The translations under genes and the position numbers were made by a program. A DNA stretch of 64,000 nt. It comes from a virus. Taxonomy: Duplodnaviria > Caudoviricetes. This document shows, in pieces, positions 9,902-49,620 of this stretch. Location of the stretch: the IMG/VR virus record IMGVR_UViG_3300028186_000155; one strand, given 5' to 3'. The stretch's first letter is position 1, and the number at the start of each line of letters is the position of its first letter. The notes below the pieces were generated by a model. That model saw nothing but the letters and a program-made list of their open reading frames with translations, had not been told where the DNA came from and ran no database searches.

Positions 9902-10354
9902 TTACGCGACAAGCACGTCGGTGAAATAAGTTGGATCGTTCGCAGCTTTCTTCTGATCAGCACGGTCGATACCGGTGGTGATTGCATAGGCGCGAACGGC
10001 GCAGAACATTGACCATTTCTGCCAAGCTGGAACGTTGAGCACGCCCATAGCTTCGAGGAAAATCAGGTCGCCTTGCTTACGGGTGACATACACGTTTGTT
10101 CCATTCATGTTTACAGTTCTGTATGAACAGATGTAATCGTGAATGACGGCGGCTTTGCCGTACTTGCCGTTAGGTGGCAGCAGCCAACGAATCCACCACG
10201 GAACCGAGGCCAGATCGGTTCTGTAGCCAACCGGCACATTGACCATCACACCGGAACCCAGCGCACCGATCATGTAGGTAAACATTTGCCAAATGACGTA
10301 ATGAATCCCGTCATCTTCAAACTCGGCAACCAGTTTGGTGGTAAAGCTACTCAC
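9902..10354 (-). CDS. DUF1353-family protein
   Basis: VPVGYRTDLASVP...AAVIHDY...R..GD.IF.EAM..L.V motifs. Confidence 0.85.
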   Translation of the reverse strand: MSSFTTKLVAEFEDDGIHYVIWQMFTYMIGALGSGVMVNVPVGYRTDLASVPWWIRWLLPPNGKYGKAAVIHDYICSYRTVNMNGTNVYVTRKQGDLIFLEAMGVLNVPAWQKWSMFCAVRAYAITTGIDRADQKKAANDPTYFTDVLVA

Positions 10355-11825: not shown

Positions 11826-12285
11826 TTTCCGGTTCCTTGATAAAGGTAGGCGCAATCCAAAAATCGATATGCAGGCCGGGATCGAAAGGCACGTCCTGAT
11901 AGCCAGTCATCACGAACTTTTGACCCAACAAACTCAGGTGCAAATGCTTTTCGACTTCGTAGCTGTTATGCATGTGGCCACGTGTGATTTCCAGAGCGAA
12001 TTTCGCCAGTCTTTTCTGCATTTCAGCCGCCAGTGGGTAGGCCAAAACAGCGTGCGGGGTTTCGTGATCTTTGACGGTCAGCAGGCGCAGGTGAATTGGA
12101 TGGAACGAAACGCGATTTGCATAACTCGCACCATTACGCACCAATGGCGGTGGATTGAGTCCTGCTCGCAGTTCGTCGCGGTTCTGCACCACGGCCAGCA
12201 CCGGATGGCCATAGACGATCCAATGGAACTGGAAATATTCTTTTTGTGTGAGGTGACGATACACATTGGCAAACAGGTCAGCCAT
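11818..12285 (-). CDS. Hypothetical protein
   Basis: Start at MADLF (GGAG RBS), downstream of a terminator and an ACTGTAAAT motif. Confidence 0.65.
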   Translation of the reverse strand: MADLFANVYRHLTQKEYFQFHWIVYGHPVLAVVQNRDELRAGLNPPPLVRNGASYANRVSFHPIHLRLLTVKDHETPHAVLAYPLAAEMQKRLAKFALEITRGHMHNSYEVEKHLHLSLLGQKFVMTGYQDVPFDPGLHIDFWIAPTFIKEPENV

Positions 12286-12315
12286 GGGGCAGGCTCCGTG
12301 ATGGTCTACCCTGTA

Positions 12316-12323
12316 TTTACAGT
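12316..12323 (-). promoter_or_regulatory. Putative early/middle promoter element ACTGTAAA(T)
   Basis: Intergenic, directly after a terminator and about 30 nt before a start codon; recurs 10 times on the minus strand. Confidence 0.55.
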
Positions 12324-12335
12324 ATTGACCAAAAT

Positions 12336-12372
12336 GAAAAAGCCCCCGATCCGCCATGGAACCGAGGGCCTT
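12336..12372 (-). terminator. Rho-independent terminator
   Basis: GGCCCTCGGTTC...GGATCGGGGGCT followed by TTTT. Confidence 0.75.
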
Positions 12373-12375
12373 TGG

Positions 12376-13185
12376 TCAAGCGTAGAGCAAGGTCTTTGCC
12401 ACAAAGTTTTCGAATTGATGCAGCAGCACAAACTGGCTCCAATTCGTTGTGGTGTATACCGCGTTATGGGTCAGTACCGTGCCGTCATACAAAGCCACGG
12501 CAGGCGCATCGAGGTCAACAATGTTGAATGTCCAGCCGTTTTTGTACACACCAAAAATCGGTTGATCATCAAACACCGCGCTAACCACAGCGTACCCATT
12601 TCGAGCATCGTACCAGCAGCCCGTAACCACCAAACCGTCAAGGTCGGTCACGCCTTCAGAGGTCAATGCTGTGATTGGTCCCCGGAAAGTTTCCATGGTT
12701 TGTCCGCTGTGCAGAACTACCCGGAAATTGGTTGCTTGATCCGTGAGCCACACCCGGCCCGCACCTACCTCAATTTCTTGCCAATTAGGGCCAACCAAAA
12801 TTGATCCCTGATCGGTGCCGAATGCAGGTCCGTTCACATTGCGAGCGCAGACAAAATTGCCATCAAACTCATGAACCAGCGTCCAGTCTGAATCCAGTGC
12901 ATAGATCCCCACACCATCCACCGACGCGTAGAACGCACCGGCAGCAAAAACAATGTGAGAAAATACGAGATTTACATCGGTTGCGGTCCACTCGACTTTA
13001 TCGGTCGAGGTGTGAACCTGCTGCCCTATCGCGATGTACTGGCCTGCACCGAATGCAATGCCGTTGATAGAATCAGCAACCGACGCAGGTACGAAACCAT
13101 TAGACTGAACGAATAGACCGTTTCCATCTTGGGTCGTACCTGAACCACCGACAACAAGCGAACGTCGCGGAACAGGTTTTACGAC
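12376..13185 (-). CDS. Beta-rich (propeller-like) domain, probably made as a -1 frameshift extension of 13179..14111
   Basis: The frame is open for 88 codons upstream of the first GTG (12921), with no ATG/GTG/TTG, back to the A_AAA_AAG site; repeats IAFGAGQYIAIG / IVFAAGAFYASV. Confidence 0.75.
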   Translation of the reverse strand, partial: VVKPVPRRSLVVGGSGTTQDGNGLFVQSNGFVPASVADSINGIAFGAGQYIAIGQQVHTSTDKVEWTATDVNLVFSHIVFAAGAFYASVDGVGIYALDSDWTLVHEFDGNFVCARNVNGPAFGTDQGSILVGPNWQEIEVGAGRVWLTDQATNFRVVLHSGQTMETFRGPITALTSEGVTDLDGLVVTGCWYDARNGYAVVSAVFDDQPIFGVYKNGWTFNIVDLDAPAVALYDGTVLTHNAVYTTTNWSQFVLLHQFENFVAKTLLYA

Positions 13186-14111
13186 TTTTTTACGACGTTT
13201 GCCAGAACCTCTACGCTCACTTCGTCACCGGCGCTAAGGCGCGGTTTGGCTACGAGTTTCAGGCCGTAAATGCCGAGCGGAACACCTTGCTTGGTGCGTT
13301 CGGTGGTGGCGGGCAGGGAATGCGAAATGAACGGGAATTCATAACGCTGAATCATCTGCGTGACGTTGTGCAGTTCGTTGGTGGCGCTATCGCTGATTAC
13401 ACGAATGCCGTTGTTGAACCACGCGTAGCTGTCACCTTTGCCGTCCAGCGATTTACCGAATACCAAATCCCATTTGATTTGATCGGTTTCACCCGAAGCG
13501 TCGGTGTCGAGATACAGCGAAATATCGTACATTTGCGTCACGTCGGTTACGCCGTCTTTCAGCGAGCCGACAGTTACCGCAAAATTCCACGATTCCGCTT
13601 GTGCTTCGTCCAGTTCGATATCGAACCCATTGGCGCCATCGCCGTAGTAGGTCGAATCGTTTACTTTGCGTACAGCCAAACCGAGTTCGATATTCGCGTT
13701 GGTGCCCAGCACGAAATCATCAGCCGGATTACCATGGCCGACCAGCATGTAATTTTTGCCGCCAGATTCGCGAACAAAACTGGTTTCGGCTTTCGGCTGT
13801 TCAGTCAGCGGACCATAGGTCACGGTGGCCAGTGCGCCGGTTGGTTCCCACGGGCCGAGACAGATCAACGTGTCATTCAAATAAAACGAAATGATCTTGT
13901 TGTCAGAACCGGCGATGATATTGGACATTACGATGGCGTCGGAGGTGCCATAGTGTGTGCAAACCGCAGTTCGGAACGCGCCCGACTTTACGATTTCGTC
14001 CATTTCGTCTTCGGTGACTTGAATGCGGCGAATTTGGTTAGGATCGCCACGTTCCTGCATGGCTTCCAAAATGTCAGCCACTACCCCGGTATATTTCTGG
14101 ATGTTCATCAA
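13179..14111 (-). CDS. Putative virion structural protein (310 aa)
   Basis: Beta-rich ORF preceded by a TAATTT motif; ends in the slippery sequence GTA AAA AAG TCG TAA. Confidence 0.75.
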   Translation of the reverse strand: MMNIQKYTGVVADILEAMQERGDPNQIRRIQVTEDEMDEIVKSGAFRTAVCTHYGTSDAIVMSNIIAGSDNKIISFYLNDTLICLGPWEPTGALATVTYGPLTEQPKAETSFVRESGGKNYMLVGHGNPADDFVLGTNANIELGLAVRKVNDSTYYGDGANGFDIELDEAQAESWNFAVTVGSLKDGVTDVTQMYDISLYLDTDASGETDQIKWDLVFGKSLDGKGDSYAWFNNGIRVISDSATNELHNVTQMIQRYEFPFISHSLPATTERTKQGVPLGIYGLKLVAKPRLSAGDEVSVEVLANVVKKS

Positions 14112-14168
14112 GAACCCCTTTACTGGTCAAAAACTCCGTATTGTTCAATACGAAACCCTACCATTAAA

Positions 14169-14474
14169 TTACCCTTTTAGTACGTGGCGAATGTCTTTGA
14201 ACTCTTTGTAGAATTGGCGGTATTTCATAGTGCCACTACGAATCCAATCCTCCATAAAAACTAGCGCGAAGATGGTAAGCAGCGACATGATCAACACCTG
14301 AAATTCCATACCCTGTTTTTGTAACAGTGACATTGCGGTTGCCGCACTCCAAACAAACAGGCAGCAAAGGACCACCAGCCCTACAAGGCACGCGGGCCAT
14401 AACACAACAGCCATCCAACAAAGGGCCAAACCAATCCGATCTTTCATCACATGTAATCCGAAATAATTGCGCAT
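14169..14474 (-). CDS. Small membrane protein
   Basis: Two long hydrophobic segments. Confidence 0.6.
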   Translation of the reverse strand: MRNYFGLHVMKDRIGLALCWMAVVLWPACLVGLVVLCCLFVWSAATAMSLLQKQGMEFQVLIMSLLTIFALVFMEDWIRSGTMKYRQFYKEFKDIRHVLKG

Positions 14475-14701
14475 TTAAAGAGCCGTCGCGCCGACCAAAT
14501 GCAGAGGGCAATAGCCGACGCAAATAATACACCAATCAAGGTTGCAGGCACGATGAACGCGACAGCATATGTGGCGAAAAGTTCCGGGCCACGATCCGCG
14601 TACATTTTCACCAGATGAAACAAGCTCACGCAGAACACAGCCAATATCGTACCAATGCAGGTTGAAGACACGGCCAACACCGCTAGATAGATCGCAGGCA
14701 T
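14447..14701 (-). CDS. Small membrane protein
   Basis: Two hydrophobic segments. Confidence 0.6.
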   Translation of the reverse strand: MPAIYLAVLAVSSTCIGTILAVFCVSLFHLVKMYADRGPELFATYAVAFIVPATLIGVLFASAIALCIWSARRLFKCAIISDYM

Positions 14702-26581: not shown

Positions 26582-28174
26582 TTAAGCCGCGAGAGATTCG
26601 ACGGCGGTGCTCAATTGACCTGTAGCCGCAACAGTGGTCGTGAACTTGATCCGCTTGGCATAACGCGTCGGCTGGATAATGTAGACCAATGCAACGTCTC
26701 CGTTTGCAATCTGCGCCGGAGGGTTGGTATTTTTGTCGCAGTAGACTTTCGCGTAATACAAACCGCGTTTGCCTTTGATCGGGTTAACGATCCGCTCAAC
26801 AATACCGCGCAGCTGCGCCCACAAGAATTCGTCGTTAGGATCGAACAGGCCGACCAGAACGTCATATTTTGCGGTGGTTTCGATCAAGTTGATCAGACGG
26901 CGCACGTTGATATCCTGCAACGCCGATTTGGTCGATTGCAAGGTCTGTGCACCCCACACGCAATAACCGTAACCGGCTTGCTTGTGGATCATGTTGATCT
27001 GGTTTTGATCCAGAATATTTCGTTCCGGCAACGAATATTTGTGACGCACACCGTTGATTTCGGTAATGACGCCACGGATCACACCAGCCGGTGCCCAAAA
27101 CACATCGCGCATTTGGTCACTCTGTGCGAACACAGCGGCCACTGCGCCAGATGGCGGCACGTAGACTTCTTGGTTGTCGTCGGTAACTTCCAGAATATCC
27201 GAGCAATAAATCGCTGCGAAACTGGTGTTGGTGTTCAGCACGTTACGACGGTGATTTACCGCACGGGTAACGGTTTGCTGATCCGACGGAATGTCGAGGA
27301 TTGCGAAGCAGTCACGGCGGGCCTCGGCCAGCGCGATCATGGCTTGCTGCACCCCAGCATCGGAATAACCCGCGTTGATCAGAATACGAATTTCGTAATC
27401 GTCTTCGTTCGCGAATTCGTCCCAACCGCTGATGATATCGCCGTTGGTTGCGGCGCGGCCATTGTCACCGTAAGACAAATCAACCTGCACAATGGCGTTG
27501 ATCAGTCGTTTGGCACCTTTAGACGCCACGTATTCCGGGTGGTTTTCGTTGACCATGAAACGCACACGCGATTCCATGTTTTCCAACTGGTACGCGATGG
27601 ACAGTTGGCGGTTTTGACCGTCTACTTTTTCGCGCAAAGTGCCACGGTAAGTTTCTACCGGAACGCTCATGTTGGTTTCGAAAACTTGGAGAACGAAAAT
27701 CTCGTTTTCCACGTCGTTCGGATCGGGGTACATCAGCACGCGCAGCTGGTTGTTCCAGTCGCCGGGGTTCGATCCGTAGATAAACCCGATTTCGTCTGGC
27801 AGTTGGTTATGCTCGGTTGCCGGGTCCAAATAGCCTTGAGTTGCAGCTTTCGGAACCGAGAAACCGTTTTCAGTTTTGACCGCCGCGTTACCGTAATTCG
27901 CTCCGGTATCAACGCGAAGGGTCCACAAACGTTGTGCTTTTTTCAGGAAGCGTTCAGCCGCAAAGTGGCCGAAGGTAAGCGATGCATCCCGCAGGCCATA
28001 ATTGGCCCGGAATTCCGCAACGCTGGTGCTCAGTACAGGAACACCAACGCGACCGCGATTCGATTCACTTACCATTGCCCCTGTGGTTGGGTAAGTCGAG
28101 GAAGCCGATTGCGAATTATCGACTTCGCCGCCATACACACCCGCCGACGTGTTACTGCCGTTTTGAAGGGTCAT
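26582..28174 (-). CDS. Tail sheath protein 1
   Basis: SAGVY N-terminus, AEARRDCFAILDIP, VPPSGAVA, WAPAGVIRG, INVRRL, FDPND. Confidence 0.95.
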   Translation of the reverse strand: MTLQNGSNTSAGVYGGEVDNSQSASSTYPTTGAMVSESNRGRVGVPVLSTSVAEFRANYGLRDASLTFGHFAAERFLKKAQRLWTLRVDTGANYGNAAVKTENGFSVPKAATQGYLDPATEHNQLPDEIGFIYGSNPGDWNNQLRVLMYPDPNDVENEIFVLQVFETNMSVPVETYRGTLREKVDGQNRQLSIAYQLENMESRVRFMVNENHPEYVASKGAKRLINAIVQVDLSYGDNGRAATNGDIISGWDEFANEDDYEIRILINAGYSDAGVQQAMIALAEARRDCFAILDIPSDQQTVTRAVNHRRNVLNTNTSFAAIYCSDILEVTDDNQEVYVPPSGAVAAVFAQSDQMRDVFWAPAGVIRGVITEINGVRHKYSLPERNILDQNQINMIHKQAGYGYCVWGAQTLQSTKSALQDINVRRLINLIETTAKYDVLVGLFDPNDEFLWAQLRGIVERIVNPIKGKRGLYYAKVYCDKNTNPPAQIANGDVALVYIIQPTRYAKRIKFTTTVAATGQLSTAVESLAA

Positions 28175-28219
28175 TGGACAATCTCCAGTAATCTCCCAAA
28201 AGGTTTCGGGATTACTATT

Positions 28220-28225
28220 AAATTA
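28220..28225 (-). promoter_or_regulatory. Putative late promoter TAATTT (sheath 1 / tube)
   Basis: GCGTAATTTAAT, the same 12-mer as upstream of sheath 2. Confidence 0.6.
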
Positions 28226-29572
28226 CGCTTTTATCAAAGTAATGCGAGTCACTTTATCGGCCATCAGTTTAATGGTCCCGGCAAAGGAACCATTCAGCAT
28301 GAATTGACCGTTAACCCGGAAGCGTACAGGTGCGCTCTGTAGCTCTTCGTCCGGTGTTGGAACAATTACCGGAATTTCTGGTGCAGGAGGTGCCACCAAT
28401 TCCAGCTGTTTCGTTACGGTCTGCCCACCTGCCGTGTATTCAACGGTCACAGGCTGGCCGGGCAGTCCGTATTGATAGAACGATTCAAATTGCGCAGTGT
28501 ATTTGCCCGAATATGCGAAGGTCGCAGTCAACGGGAAATACAGCACGGCGCCGCTCACCTGATTGCGCAGAGTAAGACGCGGATTATCCGACATGTTTGG
28601 ATCAGTAACCGTGACCGTAAACGGTTCAACGATATTGACCTGCGTTTGCACATCGAGCGCAGGCACCACGTTGGAACGAACCGTGATTTCGTGCACGATA
28701 CTTTGCGGGTCGCCGTGGATATCTTTGCCAACCGTTACCAGCTGGAAAACATCACCATCGTCAGCAGCAAACGACGTTGGCGAATCCACATAACCAACTT
28801 CGATTGGCACCATTTGCGCATGGGTAACTTGCAGCGTGGAACCCGAACGCAGGTTGGTGATTTGCGTGTGCGGCGTGGATGGATTTTTCACCCGGAAATT
28901 GATGAATTTCCCGAACGGTACAGAAGCGGGTGCTTCAAACGAAGTGGGAACGAAATCGAGGGTAACAACCTGTTCTGCCGTCACGACCTGCGAGTGTCCC
29001 GAAGCGCCATAAGCCTCTTCGTATTTGAAACTCAAAATGTCGTTTTCTTGGCAGTACATCACCTGATCGAAATCTTCACCTTGGGCCACGTTGTTTTGCG
29101 TCACAAGGAAACCCGAATAGAGTCCTTGCGTAACGCGCTGCAACACCACCTCTTCAGTTTCCCCGGTGCGCATGTTCATTGCTTGAATGGTCAGCGGTGC
29201 CGAAGTGAAAATATCAAGGTCTTTCACCGTCACGGAAACGAAGCGACCGGCGTCTGCTTTGCCAATCTCGATTTCCGCGTCGTGGAAGATTTGTTCGGTG
29301 CGCACTTCCGGTTCTGGAATCGAACCAAAACTCACCAATTCCATTTCGATTTCGTGCGGACACTGGATCGAAACGATGTTGTGCACGTCTTTGATTGTGT
29401 ACGGATTATCCGGTCCAATCGTGATATCTTTTTGCTCCAGCGTACTCTCCGTTACCTTGGTGGCCACGCTGAAACTGTTGACGCCGGTTTTCCGGGTATT
29501 GTCCACCAGAAATTGCCGCACTTCGGTAACGATGGTGCGTTGTGGTGGCCGGTAAACATTGAAAGGTTTCAT
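28223..29572 (-). CDS. Virion structural protein with Ig-like repeats
   Basis: Beta-rich with three internal repeats; lies between the head and tail genes. Confidence 0.65.
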   Translation of the reverse strand: MKPFNVYRPPQRTIVTEVRQFLVDNTRKTGVNSFSVATKVTESTLEQKDITIGPDNPYTIKDVHNIVSIQCPHEIEMELVSFGSIPEPEVRTEQIFHDAEIEIGKADAGRFVSVTVKDLDIFTSAPLTIQAMNMRTGETEEVVLQRVTQGLYSGFLVTQNNVAQGEDFDQVMYCQENDILSFKYEEAYGASGHSQVVTAEQVVTLDFVPTSFEAPASVPFGKFINFRVKNPSTPHTQITNLRSGSTLQVTHAQMVPIEVGYVDSPTSFAADDGDVFQLVTVGKDIHGDPQSIVHEITVRSNVVPALDVQTQVNIVEPFTVTVTDPNMSDNPRLTLRNQVSGAVLYFPLTATFAYSGKYTAQFESFYQYGLPGQPVTVEYTAGGQTVTKQLELVAPPAPEIPVIVPTPDEELQSAPVRFRVNGQFMLNGSFAGTIKLMADKVTRITLIKA

Positions 29573-41880: not shown

Positions 41881-43172
41881 AGACGTTTTCCGGGGGTCAT
41901 TTCGAGGTCGGCTGCCTTTTCCATGATCTTGTCGAGTGCGTCACCTTCCAGTTTCTTCCCGACTTTCACGGATTTGACGTTGCGCAGGTCTTCACCCGCG
42001 TGAACCTTGTAATGGCGCAGGGATTTGGTATCTTCGTTGTAGAGCACCAGCGAATCGGACATGCCCTGTTCTTCAATACCAACAATTACCCATTCGGAAT
42101 TGTCACGGCTGATCAGCACCAAACCTTCCTCGGCCAGCACTGCTTCATCGTCCACAATTTCCTCACCATCCTCGTCAACTTCCTGATCTTTGTGGAAGTC
42201 CATTTCAGGGTCTTCCTCTTCCTCGAAGTCTTCGTCTTCGAGGTCAGTAATTGACGGTTCCTCTCCATTATTTACAGTATCTTCTTCGAGTGGGAAATCT
42301 TCATCCGTTACAGGATTCAATACTTCCTCTTCATCCTCCGGCTCGAAGTCGAAGTCTTGGTCCATATCTTCGTAATCGAAGGTAGTCACCAATTGCTTGA
42401 TACGTTCTGCGTGTTTCTCACTTTCTGCATCGCCCGTTTTGGTCGGACGCGGGTCAGTGGATTTCGGTTTGATCGGGATTTTAATACGCCGGGCAGCAGC
42501 ACGTTTAGGCAGCGAGTCTTTCAGTTCGCTGAATTCCACAATGCCGGTCTGCTGGCGCGCCCGTGGCAAAATGTCGGTGTTGTTGGTGATTTGTTCGTAC
42601 AGGTCGTGGGCAATCAATACCCGTTCGCCGTTCGGCATGATGATGTAACCACCATGCGATTTACGCAAATAGCGCAAACCAATTTCATCACCCGGTTTCA
42701 GCACCGCCCGCGACGTACCGTAATGCTTGGTGGTGACTGGGGTCGAGTGCATGACCTTGCGCCACTGATAATCGTCGCGGTTGTAGCTTTCGGTTTCCCG
42801 TGGCTTGCTTGGACTGGTCCAGAATTGCGATTCGAGACGGTCATTTTGCAGACGACCTTTGCTCATGTAGGAATGCCGGGCACCTTCCTTTTTCGGTGCG
42901 TCGGGAATGCCCGTGTATTCCTTGAATCGTTTAATGAACTTGTCGATTTGTTCTTGCTTGATAGAGCGGTAAATCTTTTGTGGATATTTGGCCAGCACAA
43001 CTTGATAGGCACCAGCGGTTGGGCCGCGTGTAGCCTTTCGGAAACCCATCAGGTCATCAGGTTCAACCTTGATCGGCGTGCCGTCCAGATTGAGTTCGAA
43101 TTGTTTGCCCGCGTTATACATCCATTCGAACTGCTTGAAATCAGCTGGTGACGCGGCGAGGGCAATAATCAT
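41877..43172 (-). CDS. Putative inner-head protein (MIIALAAS N-terminus) with acidic linker
   Basis: 431 aa; shared N-terminal tag. Confidence 0.7.
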   Translation of the reverse strand: MIIALAASPADFKQFEWMYNAGKQFELNLDGTPIKVEPDDLMGFRKATRGPTAGAYQVVLAKYPQKIYRSIKQEQIDKFIKRFKEYTGIPDAPKKEGARHSYMSKGRLQNDRLESQFWTSPSKPRETESYNRDDYQWRKVMHSTPVTTKHYGTSRAVLKPGDEIGLRYLRKSHGGYIIMPNGERVLIAHDLYEQITNNTDILPRARQQTGIVEFSELKDSLPKRAAARRIKIPIKPKSTDPRPTKTGDAESEKHAERIKQLVTTFDYEDMDQDFDFEPEDEEEVLNPVTDEDFPLEEDTVNNGEEPSITDLEDEDFEEEEDPEMDFHKDQEVDEDGEEIVDDEAVLAEEGLVLISRDNSEWVIVGIEEQGMSDSLVLYNEDTKSLRHYKVHAGEDLRNVKSVKVGKKLEGDALDKIMEKAADLEMTPGKRL

Positions 43173-44839
43173 GTCACAATAATCTCTTTCTGCGCGGTGA
43201 CGGTTTCATGTTGGAGCGTGTAGGAAACTTGCAGCAAATAAGTGCCCGGAACTTTCGCAGTCACTTGGCCAAGGTAATTCGAAACGTTGTCGTCCGAACA
43301 GAACCAAAGCGCAGATGCCACACGTTCCGAACCATCGCTGAAGGTTACAAACGCTTCAAAGTTTGTCGGTGTATTTGCACGCAGGGTTTCCGGCCCGGAA
43401 ATTCGCATTTCGGTCGGGTACGTGCGATTGTCGATAATGGTTACAGGCAGCTGCGCCTCAAGATCCACACCACTGATCGACAGCGTTGCATAAATCGTGA
43501 GTTCTGCGGTTTCCATCACCTGCACCGCATGCAACACACCGGCAGCGGAAATGCTGGCAATGTGATGATTGGACAATTCCCATTTGGCAGGCAGCACAAT
43601 GTCTGTGCCATCCGCGTAAACAACGTGGAATTTCAACGATTGATATTCACCAACATACATCGGACTACGCAGTTCAATCCAGCAACGAACAGGCAGCGTA
43701 CCACTGGGCACAACTTCAACCGTTTTGTATGCCGTGAGGTTTTCATAGGCAGCCATCAAGCTAACTGGCGTATCCTGAATCACCTGCGGCACCGCGTGGA
43801 ATTGGTTGCCGTCATCGAGGTGGCCAACGGCGGTTACTGTGTGAATTTTCGATTGGACAGCTTTACGCGTTCCATCACTGAAAATCAACGTGGTGTAATA
43901 CTGCACCACAAGGCCTTCGCGCACTTTGGCCGGGCCTTCAATTACCAACGTTTCCGGCCTTACGGTCAGGTCCACCACGCTCAATTCGATTGAAGCGCTG
44001 GTGACAATTCCTTCGTATTCGTAGGTGCCAATAATCGTGGTGGTTTCAACACCTTCGACAGCGTTCGCAACGAATGCACCATTGACCTCAACGTGTCCCG
44101 CTTTCGGGTTGGTGTTAATCCAATTGGCGACAACTTCGTTATTTTTTCCATTGTCGAACAGAACATCGAGGCCAAAGGTTGCACGGCCCTTTTCCATGAC
44201 AATCGAAGGCCCGATAACGTGGGCTTTGACTGGATGAATCGAATGATCTTCTACCAAAATATCAAGGGATACTTGGCGGGTCACGTTGTTGGCCGTGTAG
44301 GTGGCGGTAAAGCGCACCATGGCCGAGCCGCGAATCTTTTGGAAATGCGCAACGCCCGTCGTGTCGATTGTGGCAACGCTGGGGCGGCTGGAAACAAACG
44401 TGGTGGGTACAACAGGAACAACAGAACCGTTATCGAAATGCGCTTGCACAACGTAAGGTTCAACCGTGTTTTTCTCCACCTCGGTTTTACCGTCGATGGA
44501 AATGGAAACTAGGGCGGGCGGTGTATCGGTATCACGCACGGAAACCGTGGTGATGGCAGTCAACGTAGTTTCAGACGCGGCATGGTAATACCGGCAATGC
44601 AACTGCACCGGGCGGGTGCCTGTCGTAACTGATCCTGCGGTGAATAATCCAGTCAGAGAAATTGTGCCGTACTGACCACCAGAAGAAACAGACCATTCGG
44701 CCTCGACTTCATGTTGCGAATTGTCGTCAAAAGTAACGACGGCACGCATCTGAAACGTCGTGCGCTCCGCAAGTGGAGCACTAGGGCCGATCAAATCCAG
44801 TTGTACCGGCCATAGTTCCTCAAAGCTAGTGTCGGCCAT
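43169..44839 (-). CDS. Virion protein made of tandem Ig-like (Big_2-type) domains
   Basis: About six repeats of I.GP..V.E......A...F.DG......W.....I...G. Confidence 0.8.
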   Translation of the reverse strand: MADTSFEELWPVQLDLIGPSAPLAERTTFQMRAVVTFDDNSQHEVEAEWSVSSGGQYGTISLTGLFTAGSVTTGTRPVQLHCRYYHAASETTLTAITTVSVRDTDTPPALVSISIDGKTEVEKNTVEPYVVQAHFDNGSVVPVVPTTFVSSRPSVATIDTTGVAHFQKIRGSAMVRFTATYTANNVTRQVSLDILVEDHSIHPVKAHVIGPSIVMEKGRATFGLDVLFDNGKNNEVVANWINTNPKAGHVEVNGAFVANAVEGVETTTIIGTYEYEGIVTSASIELSVVDLTVRPETLVIEGPAKVREGLVVQYYTTLIFSDGTRKAVQSKIHTVTAVGHLDDGNQFHAVPQVIQDTPVSLMAAYENLTAYKTVEVVPSGTLPVRCWIELRSPMYVGEYQSLKFHVVYADGTDIVLPAKWELSNHHIASISAAGVLHAVQVMETAELTIYATLSISGVDLEAQLPVTIIDNRTYPTEMRISGPETLRANTPTNFEAFVTFSDGSERVASALWFCSDDNVSNYLGQVTAKVPGTYLLQVSYTLQHETVTAQKEIIVT

Positions 44840-44905: not shown

Positions 44906-47230
44906 TTAATCGTATTTAATGGAGTATTGGTTAGTACGTGGGCTGAACTCCGGCAGAGTTGTGGCCTCGTTACGAACAATAATCCACGGACGTACACCTG
45001 TGCCGTCGTCGTACTGCACGGTCAGCTGCTTCGGCAAGTTCGGATCATAGCCCGGCAACCCGTCTTCGTTACCCAGTACATCGTTACGGTAGTTAATACC
45101 GTCAAAAGTAACGTTGAAAGAGTTTTGCAGGTCGATGATGAACGTATCGCCAGCGCGAGCATCCCACATCAGGTAAACGTAATCGTCAACGGTGATGGTG
45201 GTTTCGATGTTTTTCGCAGTTTCACCCGGTTGCAGCGACAGCGTATTGGTCATGACTTTCGACACGAAATCATCGAGGCCAGTCCAGTGCGTGTACTGTT
45301 TGCCGGAAGGCGAAGTTTCTTCGGTTACGCCGTAATCGCGCTCTTCCTGCGTAATTTCGCTGGCGATTGGACCACCAGTGAAATTCACGTTGGAGAACAT
45401 CGCAACACCATAGCGCAGCGGCGGAATTACTACGCTGCCAGTCACCACGGTAATTGCTTTGGTTGCGTTGAGGTTTACACCGTCTTCGCTGTAGGTCGCA
45501 CGAATGTTGGTCGCACCATCCGCAACACCGGTCACTTTACCATCTTGGGCCACAGTGGCTTTCGAGGTATCCGACGACGACCAAACCGGGGTTTTATTCA
45601 CGGTCGAACCATCGGCGTAAGTAACGGCGTATGTGAACGTTTGAGTTTCCAACGGAGCCAGCGAATTAGGGCCGGTAATGGCGCCCGAAACAGGCCAGTT
45701 TTTCGTGTCGGCAATTGCAACGGTTTTCTTCGCAGTAACAGTCTGGCCGTTCTGCGTGAACGAAACGTTGATTTCTACCGATTTCGAACCCGGAACAGTC
45801 AGCGGTTTCGCGGTCAGCACACCAGTTGCAGCACCAATGGTGGCGTAAGTGGTGGCGGTCACGGTCCACGCGGCAGTTACATCGGAGGTGGTGCCATCCG
45901 AGAACGTTACGCGGCCAACGTAAGTGCTGGTCGAATCTTGATCCACCGAATTCGCACCGTTAATCACGATGGAATTTGGATAAATTGCAGGATCTTTGAT
46001 GGTGACGTTCAGTTCTGCGGTACGCGTCACGCCGCCCGAAACATAGGTCGCGGTCAGCTTGGTGGTAACGTCGCGCACTTGGCTTTGACGCGGGGTCAAT
46101 ACGCCGTTGCTGAAGGTGCCCGCCGTGGTGTTACTGGAAACAAATGCATTTGGCGTAACGATTTGTTTCGAGTTGTCACTGTAGGTCGCTTCGACGGTGT
46201 AGGTGCCGGTTTCCGATTTCAGGAATTGGGTTGGACCAACAATTCGAATCGATTGCAGCAGCACAATGGACGGATCGCCGTTAATGGTGATCACGTAATC
46301 ATGGAAAACAACAACGCCGCTTTCTTCGTGTTTCCAGCTGGCACGCGCAGTTACCGGGGTATCAATTGCAACCGGGTTGGCGTGGAAAACACCAGTGTTC
46401 TGGTTGATGGTGCCGAATTCCGCGTTTACGGTCAGGGTCCAAGTGGCCTGCACGCTGAAGAATTTCGAACCATCGTCCATCAGCACGTCGGCGCGCAGAA
46501 CGTGATTGGTATTTCCGTTCACTTTCTCGGTTGGACCAACTACCGAAACCGAAATGGGGCGCGGACCAACATACGCAAATTCGGTGGTAGGCGGCAGCCA
46601 TTCCGCAACAAAGTTTCCGTCGCCGGAATCTTCGGTAATGAACAGCATGTAACCGGCAACCGGTTCGCCTTTTACAACCACGTAGTTTTCGGTTCCGTCA
46701 CCGGTCGAAAGCTTGGTGCGCGGGAAATCCGGGTGGCTGTGTGGCAGCGGTTCGCGGGCGTCACTCATGCGCGAATCATTGGTGTAAACAACCACCGGAT
46801 CTTCGCCGTCTTCAGGCTCGGAACCTTCCGACAGAGTGAAACCACCGAGGCGCTGTTGCGAAGCGAGCGGCGGGCGGAAATCAGGCACTGCACCGAGGAT
46901 CGGGTCAGCGTCTTTTTTGAAATACTGATCTTCGGTGAAAATTTCATCCACAGAAGACAGCACAGACCACGAACCACGATAGTTTTTATCGTCGTATTTT
47001 TCAGCGTCAACACGACGCATCAAAACCTTGTAGTCTTCGTGTTCTGGATCAGCGTTGATCCACGTCACGTTGTAGGGAACGGTCAGGGTATCCGGTTCGA
47101 GAAGAGAAACGAGGACAACGAATTGTTTTCCGTTGCCCTCGACAATAATCTCGACCGGGTTAAATTTCGACAAACCGCGATAGTTGAGTGCAATCGCGAT
47201 TTTTTCGTCGATAAACTCGGTCAAAGTCAT
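44906..47230 (-). CDS. Tail fibre / appendage protein with Ig-like repeats
   Basis: N-terminal DSRMSDAREPLPHSH fibre motif; four Ig-like repeats (WSSSDTSKATVAQDGKVTGV). Confidence 0.8.
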   Translation of the reverse strand: MTLTEFIDEKIAIALNYRGLSKFNPVEIIVEGNGKQFVVLVSLLEPDTLTVPYNVTWINADPEHEDYKVLMRRVDAEKYDDKNYRGSWSVLSSVDEIFTEDQYFKKDADPILGAVPDFRPPLASQQRLGGFTLSEGSEPEDGEDPVVVYTNDSRMSDAREPLPHSHPDFPRTKLSTGDGTENYVVVKGEPVAGYMLFITEDSGDGNFVAEWLPPTTEFAYVGPRPISVSVVGPTEKVNGNTNHVLRADVLMDDGSKFFSVQATWTLTVNAEFGTINQNTGVFHANPVAIDTPVTARASWKHEESGVVVFHDYVITINGDPSIVLLQSIRIVGPTQFLKSETGTYTVEATYSDNSKQIVTPNAFVSSNTTAGTFSNGVLTPRQSQVRDVTTKLTATYVSGGVTRTAELNVTIKDPAIYPNSIVINGANSVDQDSTSTYVGRVTFSDGTTSDVTAAWTVTATTYATIGAATGVLTAKPLTVPGSKSVEINVSFTQNGQTVTAKKTVAIADTKNWPVSGAITGPNSLAPLETQTFTYAVTYADGSTVNKTPVWSSSDTSKATVAQDGKVTGVADGATNIRATYSEDGVNLNATKAITVVTGSVVIPPLRYGVAMFSNVNFTGGPIASEITQEERDYGVTEETSPSGKQYTHWTGLDDFVSKVMTNTLSLQPGETAKNIETTITVDDYVYLMWDARAGDTFIIDLQNSFNVTFDGINYRNDVLGNEDGLPGYDPNLPKQLTVQYDDGTGVRPWIIVRNEATTLPEFSPRTNQYSIKYD

Positions 47231-47239
47231 GACGATTCC

Positions 47240-47881
47240 TTATCGCTGAATATCGTTGGAAGTCACTTGGCGCCATACGGCTTTGCCGTTACCAGCAGCG
47301 AACAAAGCGGCGCCCACAACCGGAGTTGCAGAATCGCCAATCTTGATCGAACCGGTGTTGGTTTTCAGCATGGTTGCCGGTTTTTCTTCGTGGGTGTGCT
47401 CGGTCGGTTTCCGTGCGTTGGTCAGGCGCGGATCGCCCTCACCTACCGCGATTGGAGCCGCGCCGTTGGTTGGTTCAACCGACAGGCGAGCGATACCCAG
47501 CGTCGAAGCGGTAGCGGCTGGAATCGGATCGTTTTGATTCAGAATTTCCGAATCTTCTGCGTCGTAATACTGATCAGCGTTGTACTGATCCATGGTGTCG
47601 ATCACTTCCCACGTGTGCACGGTGCCCACGCTGGTATCGGGGTTTTTCGACACGCGACGACGCGCCTGATTGTAGAAAACCGACGCCGGGTCGAAATCGA
47701 ACCAAATCACGTTGAGTGGCAGGATTTCGTTGTACGGTTCGCGCAGTGCAGCAACCACGGTGGTAACACGACGCACCGTGGAGTTTTGCATGCGGATCGG
47801 AACCGGGTTGGTTTCGTCCAGATTTTCGATATCGGAAATCACGCGAATGGAATCGCGGATTTCTTGCAATTGTTTTTCCAT
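47240..47881 (-). CDS. Short fibre-anchor paralog of the 774-aa protein's N-terminus
   Basis: ATASTLGIARLS, DPRLTNARKPTEHTH. Confidence 0.75.
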   Translation of the reverse strand: MEKQLQEIRDSIRVISDIENLDETNPVPIRMQNSTVRRVTTVVAALREPYNEILPLNVIWFDFDPASVFYNQARRRVSKNPDTSVGTVHTWEVIDTMDQYNADQYYDAEDSEILNQNDPIPAATASTLGIARLSVEPTNGAAPIAVGEGDPRLTNARKPTEHTHEEKPATMLKTNTGSIKIGDSATPVVGAALFAAGNGKAVWRQVTSNDIQR

Positions 47882-47886
47882 TTTGA

Positions 47887-49527
47887 TCAGTTCTCGGTGA
47901 ATGTGATGGAAGAGCCGAAATTGCGAATGTCTGCGGTCAGAGAAGCGCGACGTGCAGGAATGCTCGGATCAATCACGAAATCGAGGTTGATATCGTTGTT
48001 CGCGATATCTGCCGGGGAGTTGTTGCGGCTGTCACAAATGGTTTCCCAATCGTACAAACCACGGCCCTGTTTAACAGTGCGCGCTTCCGCGTCAACGATG
48101 TTTTTCAGCTGCTTGCGTTCGAAATCGTCAGCAGGGTTGAAAACGGACGGCAGGAACGCTTTGCGAATCATGGCCTTGATCCCGTTCACCAAACGACGAA
48201 CGTTCACGTTTTGGAAACCGCTGGCAAAGGTTTGCAGGGTCAGCTGTTCCATGATCACGTAACCACGGCCCGGAATGCGGCGCACGTAGTTGATTTGCGC
48301 TTGTTCCAGCGCATTGCGTTCTGGCAGCGAATATTTCTTCGAAAGATCCGTGACTTTCACTTGGCCGCGATTCAAACCGGCAGGCGCCCAGTAGTAGGCA
48401 CGCACACGGTCGGTGTACGCATATTGCGCAGCGACCATACCGGAAATCGGGCACCAGAATTTCTTACCCGAAACGTCATCGGTGACTTGCCCGCGTGGGC
48501 CGTACAGTGCCGAATAGCTGCTCGACAGGTTGAGGATATTTCGACGCCAGTTAACGGCGCGTGCAACTTCCTGCATATCGAACGGCAAATCCTGAATGGT
48601 GATTGCGTCACCACGGGATTCTGCAACGGCGTTCATGCGGCGCACGATTTGTTCGTTTTCGTAACCGCACGCAACCAGCATTTGCACCGCGAATTGGTCG
48701 GTATCTTCGATGCCTTCCCAAGCTGCGTTGATTTCTGCAATGGTTGCACGCTCGCCATCTTCGCCGCCGTCGAGGCGTTCGATGGTGGTGGTGCGAATTT
48801 CCACAGCCGGGCACAGGCTGTTGTTTTTGACCTTGATGTAGTTGGATTGCGAGTTCACCCGCGCCTCAACAAACATTTGGTTTCCTTCGCCGTCCAGTTC
48901 GTAAATCCGCGAACAGAAATACGATTCTACCGGAATGCTAGACGAACCTTTGTAGTTCAGGAAAACATCGAGGTAGAAATGGGTCGGGTCGTTGAATTCA
49001 CCAACTTCGGTGCCTTCCGGGTTAGCGGGGCGAATGCGAACGCTGATGATGCCAGACCATTCGCCGGGCGAGTTGGCGCAAACATAAAGCAGCGCGTTTT
49101 TCACACCAGCATCAGCGGCGGTGAAGCCCAGTACATCGAGGGGATTACCCAAAACGCCTTGCGGTTTATTGGTGCCATTATCCCAATTGACCAGCTTAAC
49201 GACCGGCACCAAAGCGCTGGTATCGTCAACCGACAGGTATGCCCCGGCGGTGCGTGCGGTCGCGGCGTTGACTGCACGTTTGATCCACATGGCGGTTTGC
49301 GCCAAAGTGTGTTCGGCACAGTGCATGCCAAAGCCGTATTTGGAATAGTTTTTAATGCCGAACTTTTCGCGCAGCACTTGTTTATCCGTTACATAAATCC
49401 AGTCGCTGGTAGAACCGCGAGGGGCTTCGATAACGGCGGATGCGATGGAGCTAACCACCGGGGAACCACGTTGACTTACGTCATTGTCCCGGTCGTAAAC
49501 ACCAGCGCTGGTGTTGGTGAAATCCAT
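47887..49527 (-). CDS. Tail sheath protein 2
   Basis: NTSAGVY, AESRGDA, WAPAGLNRG, VNVRRL, FNPAD. Confidence 0.93.
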   Translation of the reverse strand: MDFTNTSAGVYDRDNDVSQRGSPVVSSIASAVIEAPRGSTSDWIYVTDKQVLREKFGIKNYSKYGFGMHCAEHTLAQTAMWIKRAVNAATARTAGAYLSVDDTSALVPVVKLVNWDNGTNKPQGVLGNPLDVLGFTAADAGVKNALLYVCANSPGEWSGIISVRIRPANPEGTEVGEFNDPTHFYLDVFLNYKGSSSIPVESYFCSRIYELDGEGNQMFVEARVNSQSNYIKVKNNSLCPAVEIRTTTIERLDGGEDGERATIAEINAAWEGIEDTDQFAVQMLVACGYENEQIVRRMNAVAESRGDAITIQDLPFDMQEVARAVNWRRNILNLSSSYSALYGPRGQVTDDVSGKKFWCPISGMVAAQYAYTDRVRAYYWAPAGLNRGQVKVTDLSKKYSLPERNALEQAQINYVRRIPGRGYVIMEQLTLQTFASGFQNVNVRRLVNGIKAMIRKAFLPSVFNPADDFERKQLKNIVDAEARTVKQGRGLYDWETICDSRNNSPADIANNDINLDFVIDPSIPARRASLTADIRNFGSSITFTEN

Positions 49528-49592
49528 GGGTGAATCCCCTTATATGGTTGGAATGCGGGAAATAGGAGCGCATTTGTGCATTTCCTTCCATT

Positions 49593-49598
49593 AAATTA
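49593..49598 (-). promoter_or_regulatory. Putative late promoter TAATTT (sheath 2 operon)
   Basis: GCGTAATTTAATGG just downstream of a terminator. Confidence 0.6.
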
Positions 49599-49620
49599 CG
49601 CAAAGGGGATTTTGAACAAC

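Follow-up and report, generated by a model that had tools for sequence, protein, structure and literature searches.

Why should a phage reading frame that ends at a stop codon be followed, one base out of register, by a second long open frame that offers no start codon for its first 90 codons? The question is raised by a locus on the minus strand of a 64,000-nucleotide stretch of DNA (the window) from the IMG/VR virus record IMGVR_UViG_3300028186_000155, in which an open reading frame (ORF) of 309 codons, here termed ORF1, runs up to the sequence A_AAA_AAG and a -1 frame continues from there for another 269 codons. The window is part of a metagenome-derived contig of 113 kb, estimated to be 36% complete, and its genes include a major head protein, two tail-sheath paralogues, a DNA ligase, a helicase and a dCTP deaminase. 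On the strength of this gene content we take the source to be a fragment of a ~300-kb jumbo myophage, a Lu11-like giant phage. The analysis described below indicates that the two frames are very probably a single gene, from whose message a programmed -1 ribosomal frameshift at A_AAA_AAG yields proteins of 309 and 577 amino acids (aa).

A slippery heptamer at the junction of two reading frames

The 3' end of ORF1 reads GTA AAA AAG TCG TAA, with the stop codon at 13181-13179, and the heptamer is thereby set in the X_XXY_YYZ phase that tandem slippage demands (feature coordinates are collected in Table 1). The -1 frame opens at 13224, only 11 codons before the heptamer, and stays open to 12376, its first ATG, GTG or TTG being the GTG at 12921, 90 codons after the heptamer start. 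Our coordinates, verified on the minus strand, bear out a first-pass annotation made from the sequence alone, which had described the end of ORF1 and the phase of the heptamer as found here and had claimed a -1 frame without a start for 88 codons. It had also proposed two products of about 310 and 578 aa: the short and long arrangement is supported by the comparative evidence on the signal, whereas the sizes are corrected to 309 and 577 aa. ORF1 itself starts at ATG 14108, a codon that relatives conserve together with the AAGGGG ribosome-binding site before it; the ORF listing had placed the start at TTG 14111. The string AAAAAAG occurs 15 times on both strands of the window, and only the copy at 13191-13185 combines the phase of a long ORF with an immediate stop and a long open -1 frame. 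This arrangement is far above chance.

Conservation of the slippery site and a predicted downstream hairpin

Related loci were gathered with an alignment of the N-terminal domain, the C-terminal alignment being too divergent for a locus search. The resulting comparison set comprises 13 relatives with the split arrangement, namely two isolate genomes (Pseudomonas phages Lu11 and HRDY3) and contigs from IMG/VR, JGI and Logan, whose trans-frame proteins are 45-78% identical to the window product. HRDY3 (72% nucleotide identity) and Lu11 (66%) are the closest named relatives over the locus. Conservation of the heptamer in homologues had been suggested at first pass as a check, and the site proved invariant: exactly six A's followed by a G, in phase, are present in 13/13 relatives. 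A 0-frame stop follows the heptamer after 0-1 codons in all of them, the open -1 frame reaches back only 6-13 codons from the heptamer, and the first possible -1 start lies 12-90 codons downstream, at non-conserved positions. The ~50 nt 3' of the heptamer are nearly invariant and the flanks diverge. To quantify constraint on silent positions, synonymous-codon identity was calculated over pairs sharing an amino acid, in 15-codon windows along a codon alignment of the trans-frame products. The gene-wide mean is 0.537 (sd 0.097) and the maximum, 0.86, falls at the heptamer; every top-ranked window begins there or no more than a few codons away in either direction. We read this peak as the classic mark of coding sequence that also contains an RNA element.

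A candidate for this element is a two-tier hairpin, predicted to begin 7 nt after the heptamer and consisting of a 5-bp outer stem, a small internal loop and a 5-8-bp inner stem. Its minimum free energy (MFE) in the window is -17.1 kcal/mol (z -2.1), and the same architecture was recovered in 11/11 relatives folded separately, with MFE of -15.3 to -22.8 kcal/mol and z of -1.9 to -4.4. Stimulatory structures generally begin 5-8 nt after a slippery site (PMC4066793). The stem noticed at first pass, CCGCGAC...GTCGGTGG, turned out to be the inner tier of this larger structure. In the hairpin alignment, 94.9% of cells fall in standard pairs, compared with 15-52% when the partner strand is slid by 1-3 columns, and single-sided changes retain pairing (G-U/G-C/A-U and U-A/U-G). 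The divergent relatives L009 and L010 have an inner stem of other sequence and register (CCCGCC/GGCGGG and CCGCC/GGCGG, respectively), which is still a stem. A further extension of the stem that can be drawn in the window, GUCGU/ACGAC, was rejected as it is not conserved in Lu11.

The identical pair of proteins would arise if RNA polymerase, instead of the ribosome, slipped on the homopolymeric run at this site, adding one A to the A6 run so that a subset of mRNAs encodes the fusion. Efficient polymerase slippage in bacterial systems is known from runs of about 8-9 or more A's, however, and six A's are shorter than that. In addition, a run held at A6 and then G throughout the comparison set is what the X_XXY_YYZ rule requires and is not a requirement of length, while the hairpin, conserved and placed at the canonical 7 nt, and the suppression of synonymous variation downstream of the run fit a stimulator acting on the ribosome. 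Transcriptional slippage is in our judgement improbable, and we favour a programmed ribosomal frameshift as the event at A_AAA_AAG.

Coding constraint on the extension and a naturally fused orthologue

In the GenBank records of Lu11 and HRDY3, two separate hypothetical proteins are annotated at the locus (Lu11_0042 and Lu11_0041 in the case of Lu11), and gene callers likewise yield stand-alone C-terminal fragments (P0003-P0005, P0008). These annotations would suit two separate genes, the downstream ORF being expressed from an internal or non-canonical start or by termination-reinitiation, with the heptamer incidental. The annotated starts nevertheless vary among relatives (12-90 codons) and leave conserved, coding-type sequence unassigned, amounting to 116 nt between the two annotated coding sequences (CDS) in Lu11 (L002 2511-2626) and 263 nt in HRDY3 (L001 2517-2779). 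Within the start-less stretch, pairwise differences at codon positions 1/2/3 are 0.30/0.28/0.57 in the -1 frame, compared with 0.29/0.25/0.53 for ORF1, a pattern indicating that the stretch has been evolving as a protein-coding one in that frame. Neither ATG, GTG nor TTG is found near the stop, and internally started products would lose the first blades of the propeller predicted for the extension (see below); in the model, a protein begun at GTG 12921 would be short of ~90 residues and eight predicted strands. The invariance of heptamer, phase and adjacent stop is also at odds with an incidental site.

The most direct argument against two separate genes comes from a relative in which they are joined. 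A homologous-protein search restricted to longer proteins returned no fused form, and an exhaustive search of representative proteins with the extension found P0006, a 582-residue single-ORF orthologue. Its residues 1-305 match ORF1 (41% identity, E 5e-74) and residues 308-582 match the extension (35% identity, E 1.8e-30). The gene (L005 4001-5749, on a Logan ERR3200795 contig) is in a syntenic position, separated from an upstream dCTP deaminase gene by a few small genes, and reads through a Pro/Thr/Lys linker that contains no A-run and no slippery site. As P0006 carries both halves in one ORF, the halves act as a single chain in one lineage at least, and this argues strongly against two independent genes, an explanation that we hold to be highly improbable.

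An assembly artefact (a homopolymer error hiding a seventh A, a known weakness of some sequencing chemistries to which a metagenome-derived window might be exposed) or a gene decaying after a recent inactivating frameshift is hardly credible, as the recurrence of the same A6G and frames in independent assemblies from different samples (the isolates Lu11 and HRDY3 and at least 10 metagenomic contigs) and the purifying selection on both halves across deep divergence effectively dispose of both.

Domain architecture of the two predicted products

Searches of Pfam and PHROGs gave nothing significant for either half of the gene. Profile-profile alignment (hhalign) related ORF1 to two phage proteins, PA5oct EST35_0383 and gp9 of Sphingomonas phage PAU, with probabilities of 98.2% and 98.3% and E values of 4e-14 and 2.5e-14 over ~180 columns; the same homology was seen with tblastn at E 2e-6 to 7e-5. 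Foldseek against BFVD gave matches to the beta-sandwich domain of ORF1 at E ~1e-10 to 1e-11, Foldseek against the PDB gave no clear match for the N-domain, and a wide VIA search with the sandwich fold returned only generic Ig-like matches (Z 5-6). EST35_0383 is a protein of 326 aa, annotated in its record as structural by electrospray ionization tandem mass spectrometry (ESI-MS/MS), and its C terminus corresponds in position to the shift site. PAU gp9, of 768 aa, is annotated 'capsid decoration protein (banana)'; it is matched over residues 102-282 and continues past the equivalent point with an unrelated extension. Distant relatives of ORF1 thus appear to exist naturally in a 'short' (PA5oct) and an 'extended' (PAU gp9) form, and the boundaries of these homologues, taken with the domain ends, place the shift site exactly at a domain boundary. 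The C-terminal ~200 residues of ORF1 probably belong to a virion or capsid-decoration family of jumbo phages.

The extension gave an AlphaFold2 model with a mean predicted local distance difference test (pLDDT) score of 90.9 and a predicted template-modelling (pTM) score of 0.89. The model is all-beta, with ~27 strands, the first of which spans extension residues 12-18, directly after the shift site. The top Foldseek matches to the extension in the PDB are all propellers (WD40, Kelch and designed 6-7-bladed proteins), with a probability of 1.00 and TM of up to 0.71. The extension is therefore confidently predicted to fold as a beta-propeller, and the model and its matches substantiate the 'propeller-like' domain guessed at first pass. 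No similarity was detected between the propeller and the extension of PAU gp9. Weak sequence relatives of the extension are repeat-rich bacterial proteins with PKD, F5/8-type-C and DUF6242 domains, company that suggests a binding role for the propeller. The homology of the ORF1 domain to the PA5oct and PAU proteins supports indirectly the idea that the propeller serves as a surface binding domain.

A promoter-like motif shared with virion genes

The gene is preceded by a promoter-like motif of the pattern GTAATTTAAT[G/A]G, which is invariant upstream of the gene in 7 relatives. The full 113-kb record has no more than the three copies found in the window, and these all lie on the minus strand (14161-14172, 28215-28226 and 49588-49599). 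The other two stand just upstream of the two tail-sheath paralogues, and each copy lies ~40-60 nt before a start codon. In HRDY3 the motif precedes the annotated tail sheath gene and also an operon that runs to a gene labelled as portal; the Lu11 copies stand before the orthologue of the frameshift gene and before Lu11_0132, the first gene of the operon corresponding to the HRDY3 portal operon. It resembles a 'putative middle/late promoter' annotated in Lu11. The motif probably represents a strong late promoter class, and its sharing supports, indirectly, co-expression of the frameshift gene with virion genes.

Between the motif and the ribosome-binding site, a short hairpin (14152-14137, minus strand; CGTATTG-AA-CAATACG) was also noted. 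A hairpin of differing sequence occupies the equivalent position in L001, L003 and L014-L016, and the element may be a structured 5' leader.

A model for expression of the frameshift gene

We propose that the locus is one functional gene, carried on a single late mRNA and read in two ways. Most ribosomes would decode ORF1 and terminate one codon past the slippery site, releasing the 309-aa protein. A fraction, paused by the hairpin 7 nt downstream, would slip back one base on A_AAA_AAG, the tandem Lys-tRNAs re-pairing from AAA-AAG to AAA-AAA, and would then read the -1 frame to 12376. The resulting 577-aa protein would share the N-terminal part of the short form and continue through a short linker rich in Lys, Pro and Arg into the ~260-aa propeller. 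Both forms would be built into the virion, probably at the head surface, and a fixed proportion of subunits would thereby display the propeller, likely for binding. In this scheme the anatomy of the signal, its strict conservation, the coding constraint, the fused orthologue, the two folds and the homologies are results of the comparisons described above; we infer from them the ribosomal nature of the slippage, the incorporation of both forms into the virion and the late timing.

Several observations weigh against this model or parts of it. First, no double compensatory substitutions were found in the hairpin alignment, and pairing there is not above a column-shuffle control. Part of the hairpin conservation is possibly protein constraint, because the stem pairs Pro/Arg codons with Gly codons, and the conserved Pro/Arg...Gly-Gly-Ser-Gly peptide could explain much of it; we consider the predicted hairpin well supported by conservation and not proven by covariation. 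Second, Rfam gave no match at E <= 1 in 12000-14500, so no curated frameshift element is recognized there, a result that is compatible with a functionally equivalent hairpin and does not exclude one. Third, an upstream Shine-Dalgarno-like enhancer is not conserved: GAGG is found 16-17 nt upstream in some relatives, and GAAG, GAGA or CAAG in others. Such an enhancer is present in dnaX and IS911 and is optional for this class of -1 frameshift. Lastly, the gene lies among small unknown genes downstream of the dCTP deaminase, outside any obvious head module, and its placement in the virion draws on distant homology (~29% identity) and on depositors' annotations.

Comparison with known frameshift systems

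The mechanism is textbook, of the dnaX/IS3 type; the case stands out for its jumbo-phage setting and for an added module of unusual size and kind, a propeller of ~260 residues. Escherichia coli dnaX and the IS3-family elements IS911, IS3 and IS150 have the same A_AAA_AAG heptamer, a downstream hairpin and a 0-frame stop close by. dnaX and IS911 differ in having an upstream Shine-Dalgarno-like enhancer, none being conserved at the site described here. The dnaX shift truncates its protein, whereas the shift described here extends it, as in the IS3 transposases, and the proteins are unrelated.

Phage virion proteins with frameshift-appended C-terminal domains include the T7/T3 capsid proteins 10A/10B, capsid and tail proteins of Listeria phage PSA, SPP1 gp17.1* and various Ig-like additions. 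T7/T3 10A/10B, PSA and SPP1 gp17.1* likewise combine a predominant short form with a less abundant one whose C-terminal extension is an extra, probably exposed, domain, and the shift site of the window gene falls at a domain boundary as it does for these appended domains. The T7/PSA/SPP1-type additions are, however, a short tail or an Ig/FN3 domain of ~100 aa, whereas the window gene would add a beta-propeller of ~260 aa, in a ~300-kb jumbo myophage and with a virion role that we deduce from homology. PAU gp9 and PA5oct EST35_0383 share a homologous beta-sandwich of ~190 residues with ORF1, PA5oct ending like the short form and PAU continuing like the long one. They differ from the window gene in their low identity (~29%), in having no frameshift, in N-terminal ~100 residues that cannot be aligned and, for PAU, in an extension unrelated to the propeller.

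The lambda-type G/GT pair, too, is a conserved -1 frameshift in a morphogenesis-related phage gene that gives two N-terminally identical products. It comprises ~140 + 140 aa, is encoded between tail tube and tape measure and acts as chaperones, whereas the window gene has 309 + 269 codons. No PHROG or Pfam chaperone match was obtained for the window gene, and we rejected its identity as a tail assembly chaperone pair on the grounds of sizes, neighbours (small unknown genes and the dCTP deaminase) and the lack of any sequence or fold relation.

Literature searches returned no description of this frameshift, and it is unannotated in the GenBank records of Lu11 and HRDY3. Its recognition puts right the annotation of a gene conserved across an entire clade of ~300-kb jumbo phages: in Lu11, HRDY3 and many metagenomic relatives, two 'hypothetical proteins' with an unexplained gap between them would be one recoded gene. 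It also provides a clean, deeply conserved bacterial-virus case of A_AAA_AAG with a hairpin, which could serve studies of frameshifting in Pseudomonas, and points to a likely virion-surface protein in two forms, one with a large beta-propeller, of relevance to the decoration of giant-phage particles and possibly to surface adhesion. We see its value as that of a well-supported new instance, not of a new principle.

The homology to PAU gp9 invites a more speculative extension. A study of the PAU capsid described an arch of extra density only on peri-pentonal hexamers (PMC5646251); the link between gp9 and this arch is drawn here, and that paper makes no direct statement of it. It is conceivable, though we think it rather doubtful, that frameshift efficiency, as given by heptamer and hairpin, sets, at specific capsid positions, a defined ratio of subunits with the propeller to subunits without it, the propeller being a new head-borne adhesin for host or environmental glycans. 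The ratio might also be tunable by the modification state of host Lys-tRNA.

Features of the locus and its genomic neighbourhood

Table 1. Features of the frameshift gene and its flanks in the 64,000-nt window
Feature	Position	Strand	Description
Promoter-like motif GTAATTTAATGG	14172-14161	(-)	~50 nt upstream of start; putative late promoter
ORF1 (0 frame), short product	14108-13179	(-)	309 aa + TAA; orthologues align full length
Beta-sandwich domain of ORF1	13796-13194	(-)	Residues ~105-305; ends at shift site
Slippery heptamer A_AAA_AAG	13191-13185	(-)	In X_XXY_YYZ phase, one codon before stop
-1 frame extension	13191-12376	(-)	269 codons after shift + TGA (12378-12376); predicted trans-frame product 577 aa
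7-nt spacer holding 0-frame stop	13184-13178	(-)	Between heptamer and hairpin
Predicted two-tier hairpin	13177-13138	(-)	Outer ACCUG/CAGGU, inner CCGCGACG/CGUC-GGUGG
Beta-propeller domain (predicted)	13158-12379	(-)	Residues ~12-271 of extension; AlphaFold2 model
Intrinsic-terminator-like hairpin + T-run	12373-12338	(-)	Closes unit

The terminator with which the first-pass annotation had closed the unit was located as a hairpin with a T-run, and in Lu11 a matching terminator-like sequence follows the next gene downstream. Lu11_0040, which lies directly downstream of the Lu11 orthologue, is annotated 'putative tail assembly protein'. In the window, the frameshift gene is followed after a few genes by one for a DUF1353 protein (9902-10354, minus strand); in the fused-form relative this gene comes directly after it (L005 5795-6187), making it a conserved neighbour. 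The annotation faults at the HRDY3 locus (L001 2517-2779 and 3250-3393) also include an antisense CDS (XDJ15263.1), probably spurious, over the 3' end of the propeller ORF. No tRNA genes were found in the window.

The two tail-sheath paralogues, at 26582-28174 (530 aa) and 47887-49527 (546 aa), are both on the minus strand and both match phrog_23. Among the references of a paper on phage PaBG (PMC7412058) is a work on the PaBG tail sheath with a title that hints at multiple sheath components, and the present phage group may share a multiple-sheath feature with PaBG. Next to the second paralogue, three adjacent minus-strand genes (43169-44839, 44906-47230 and 47240-47881) match the same tail-protein PHROGs (13325/14098). 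The 213-aa member of this trio matches only an N-terminal part that is also present in the 774-aa member, and the group looks like a local paralogue family or a partial duplication.

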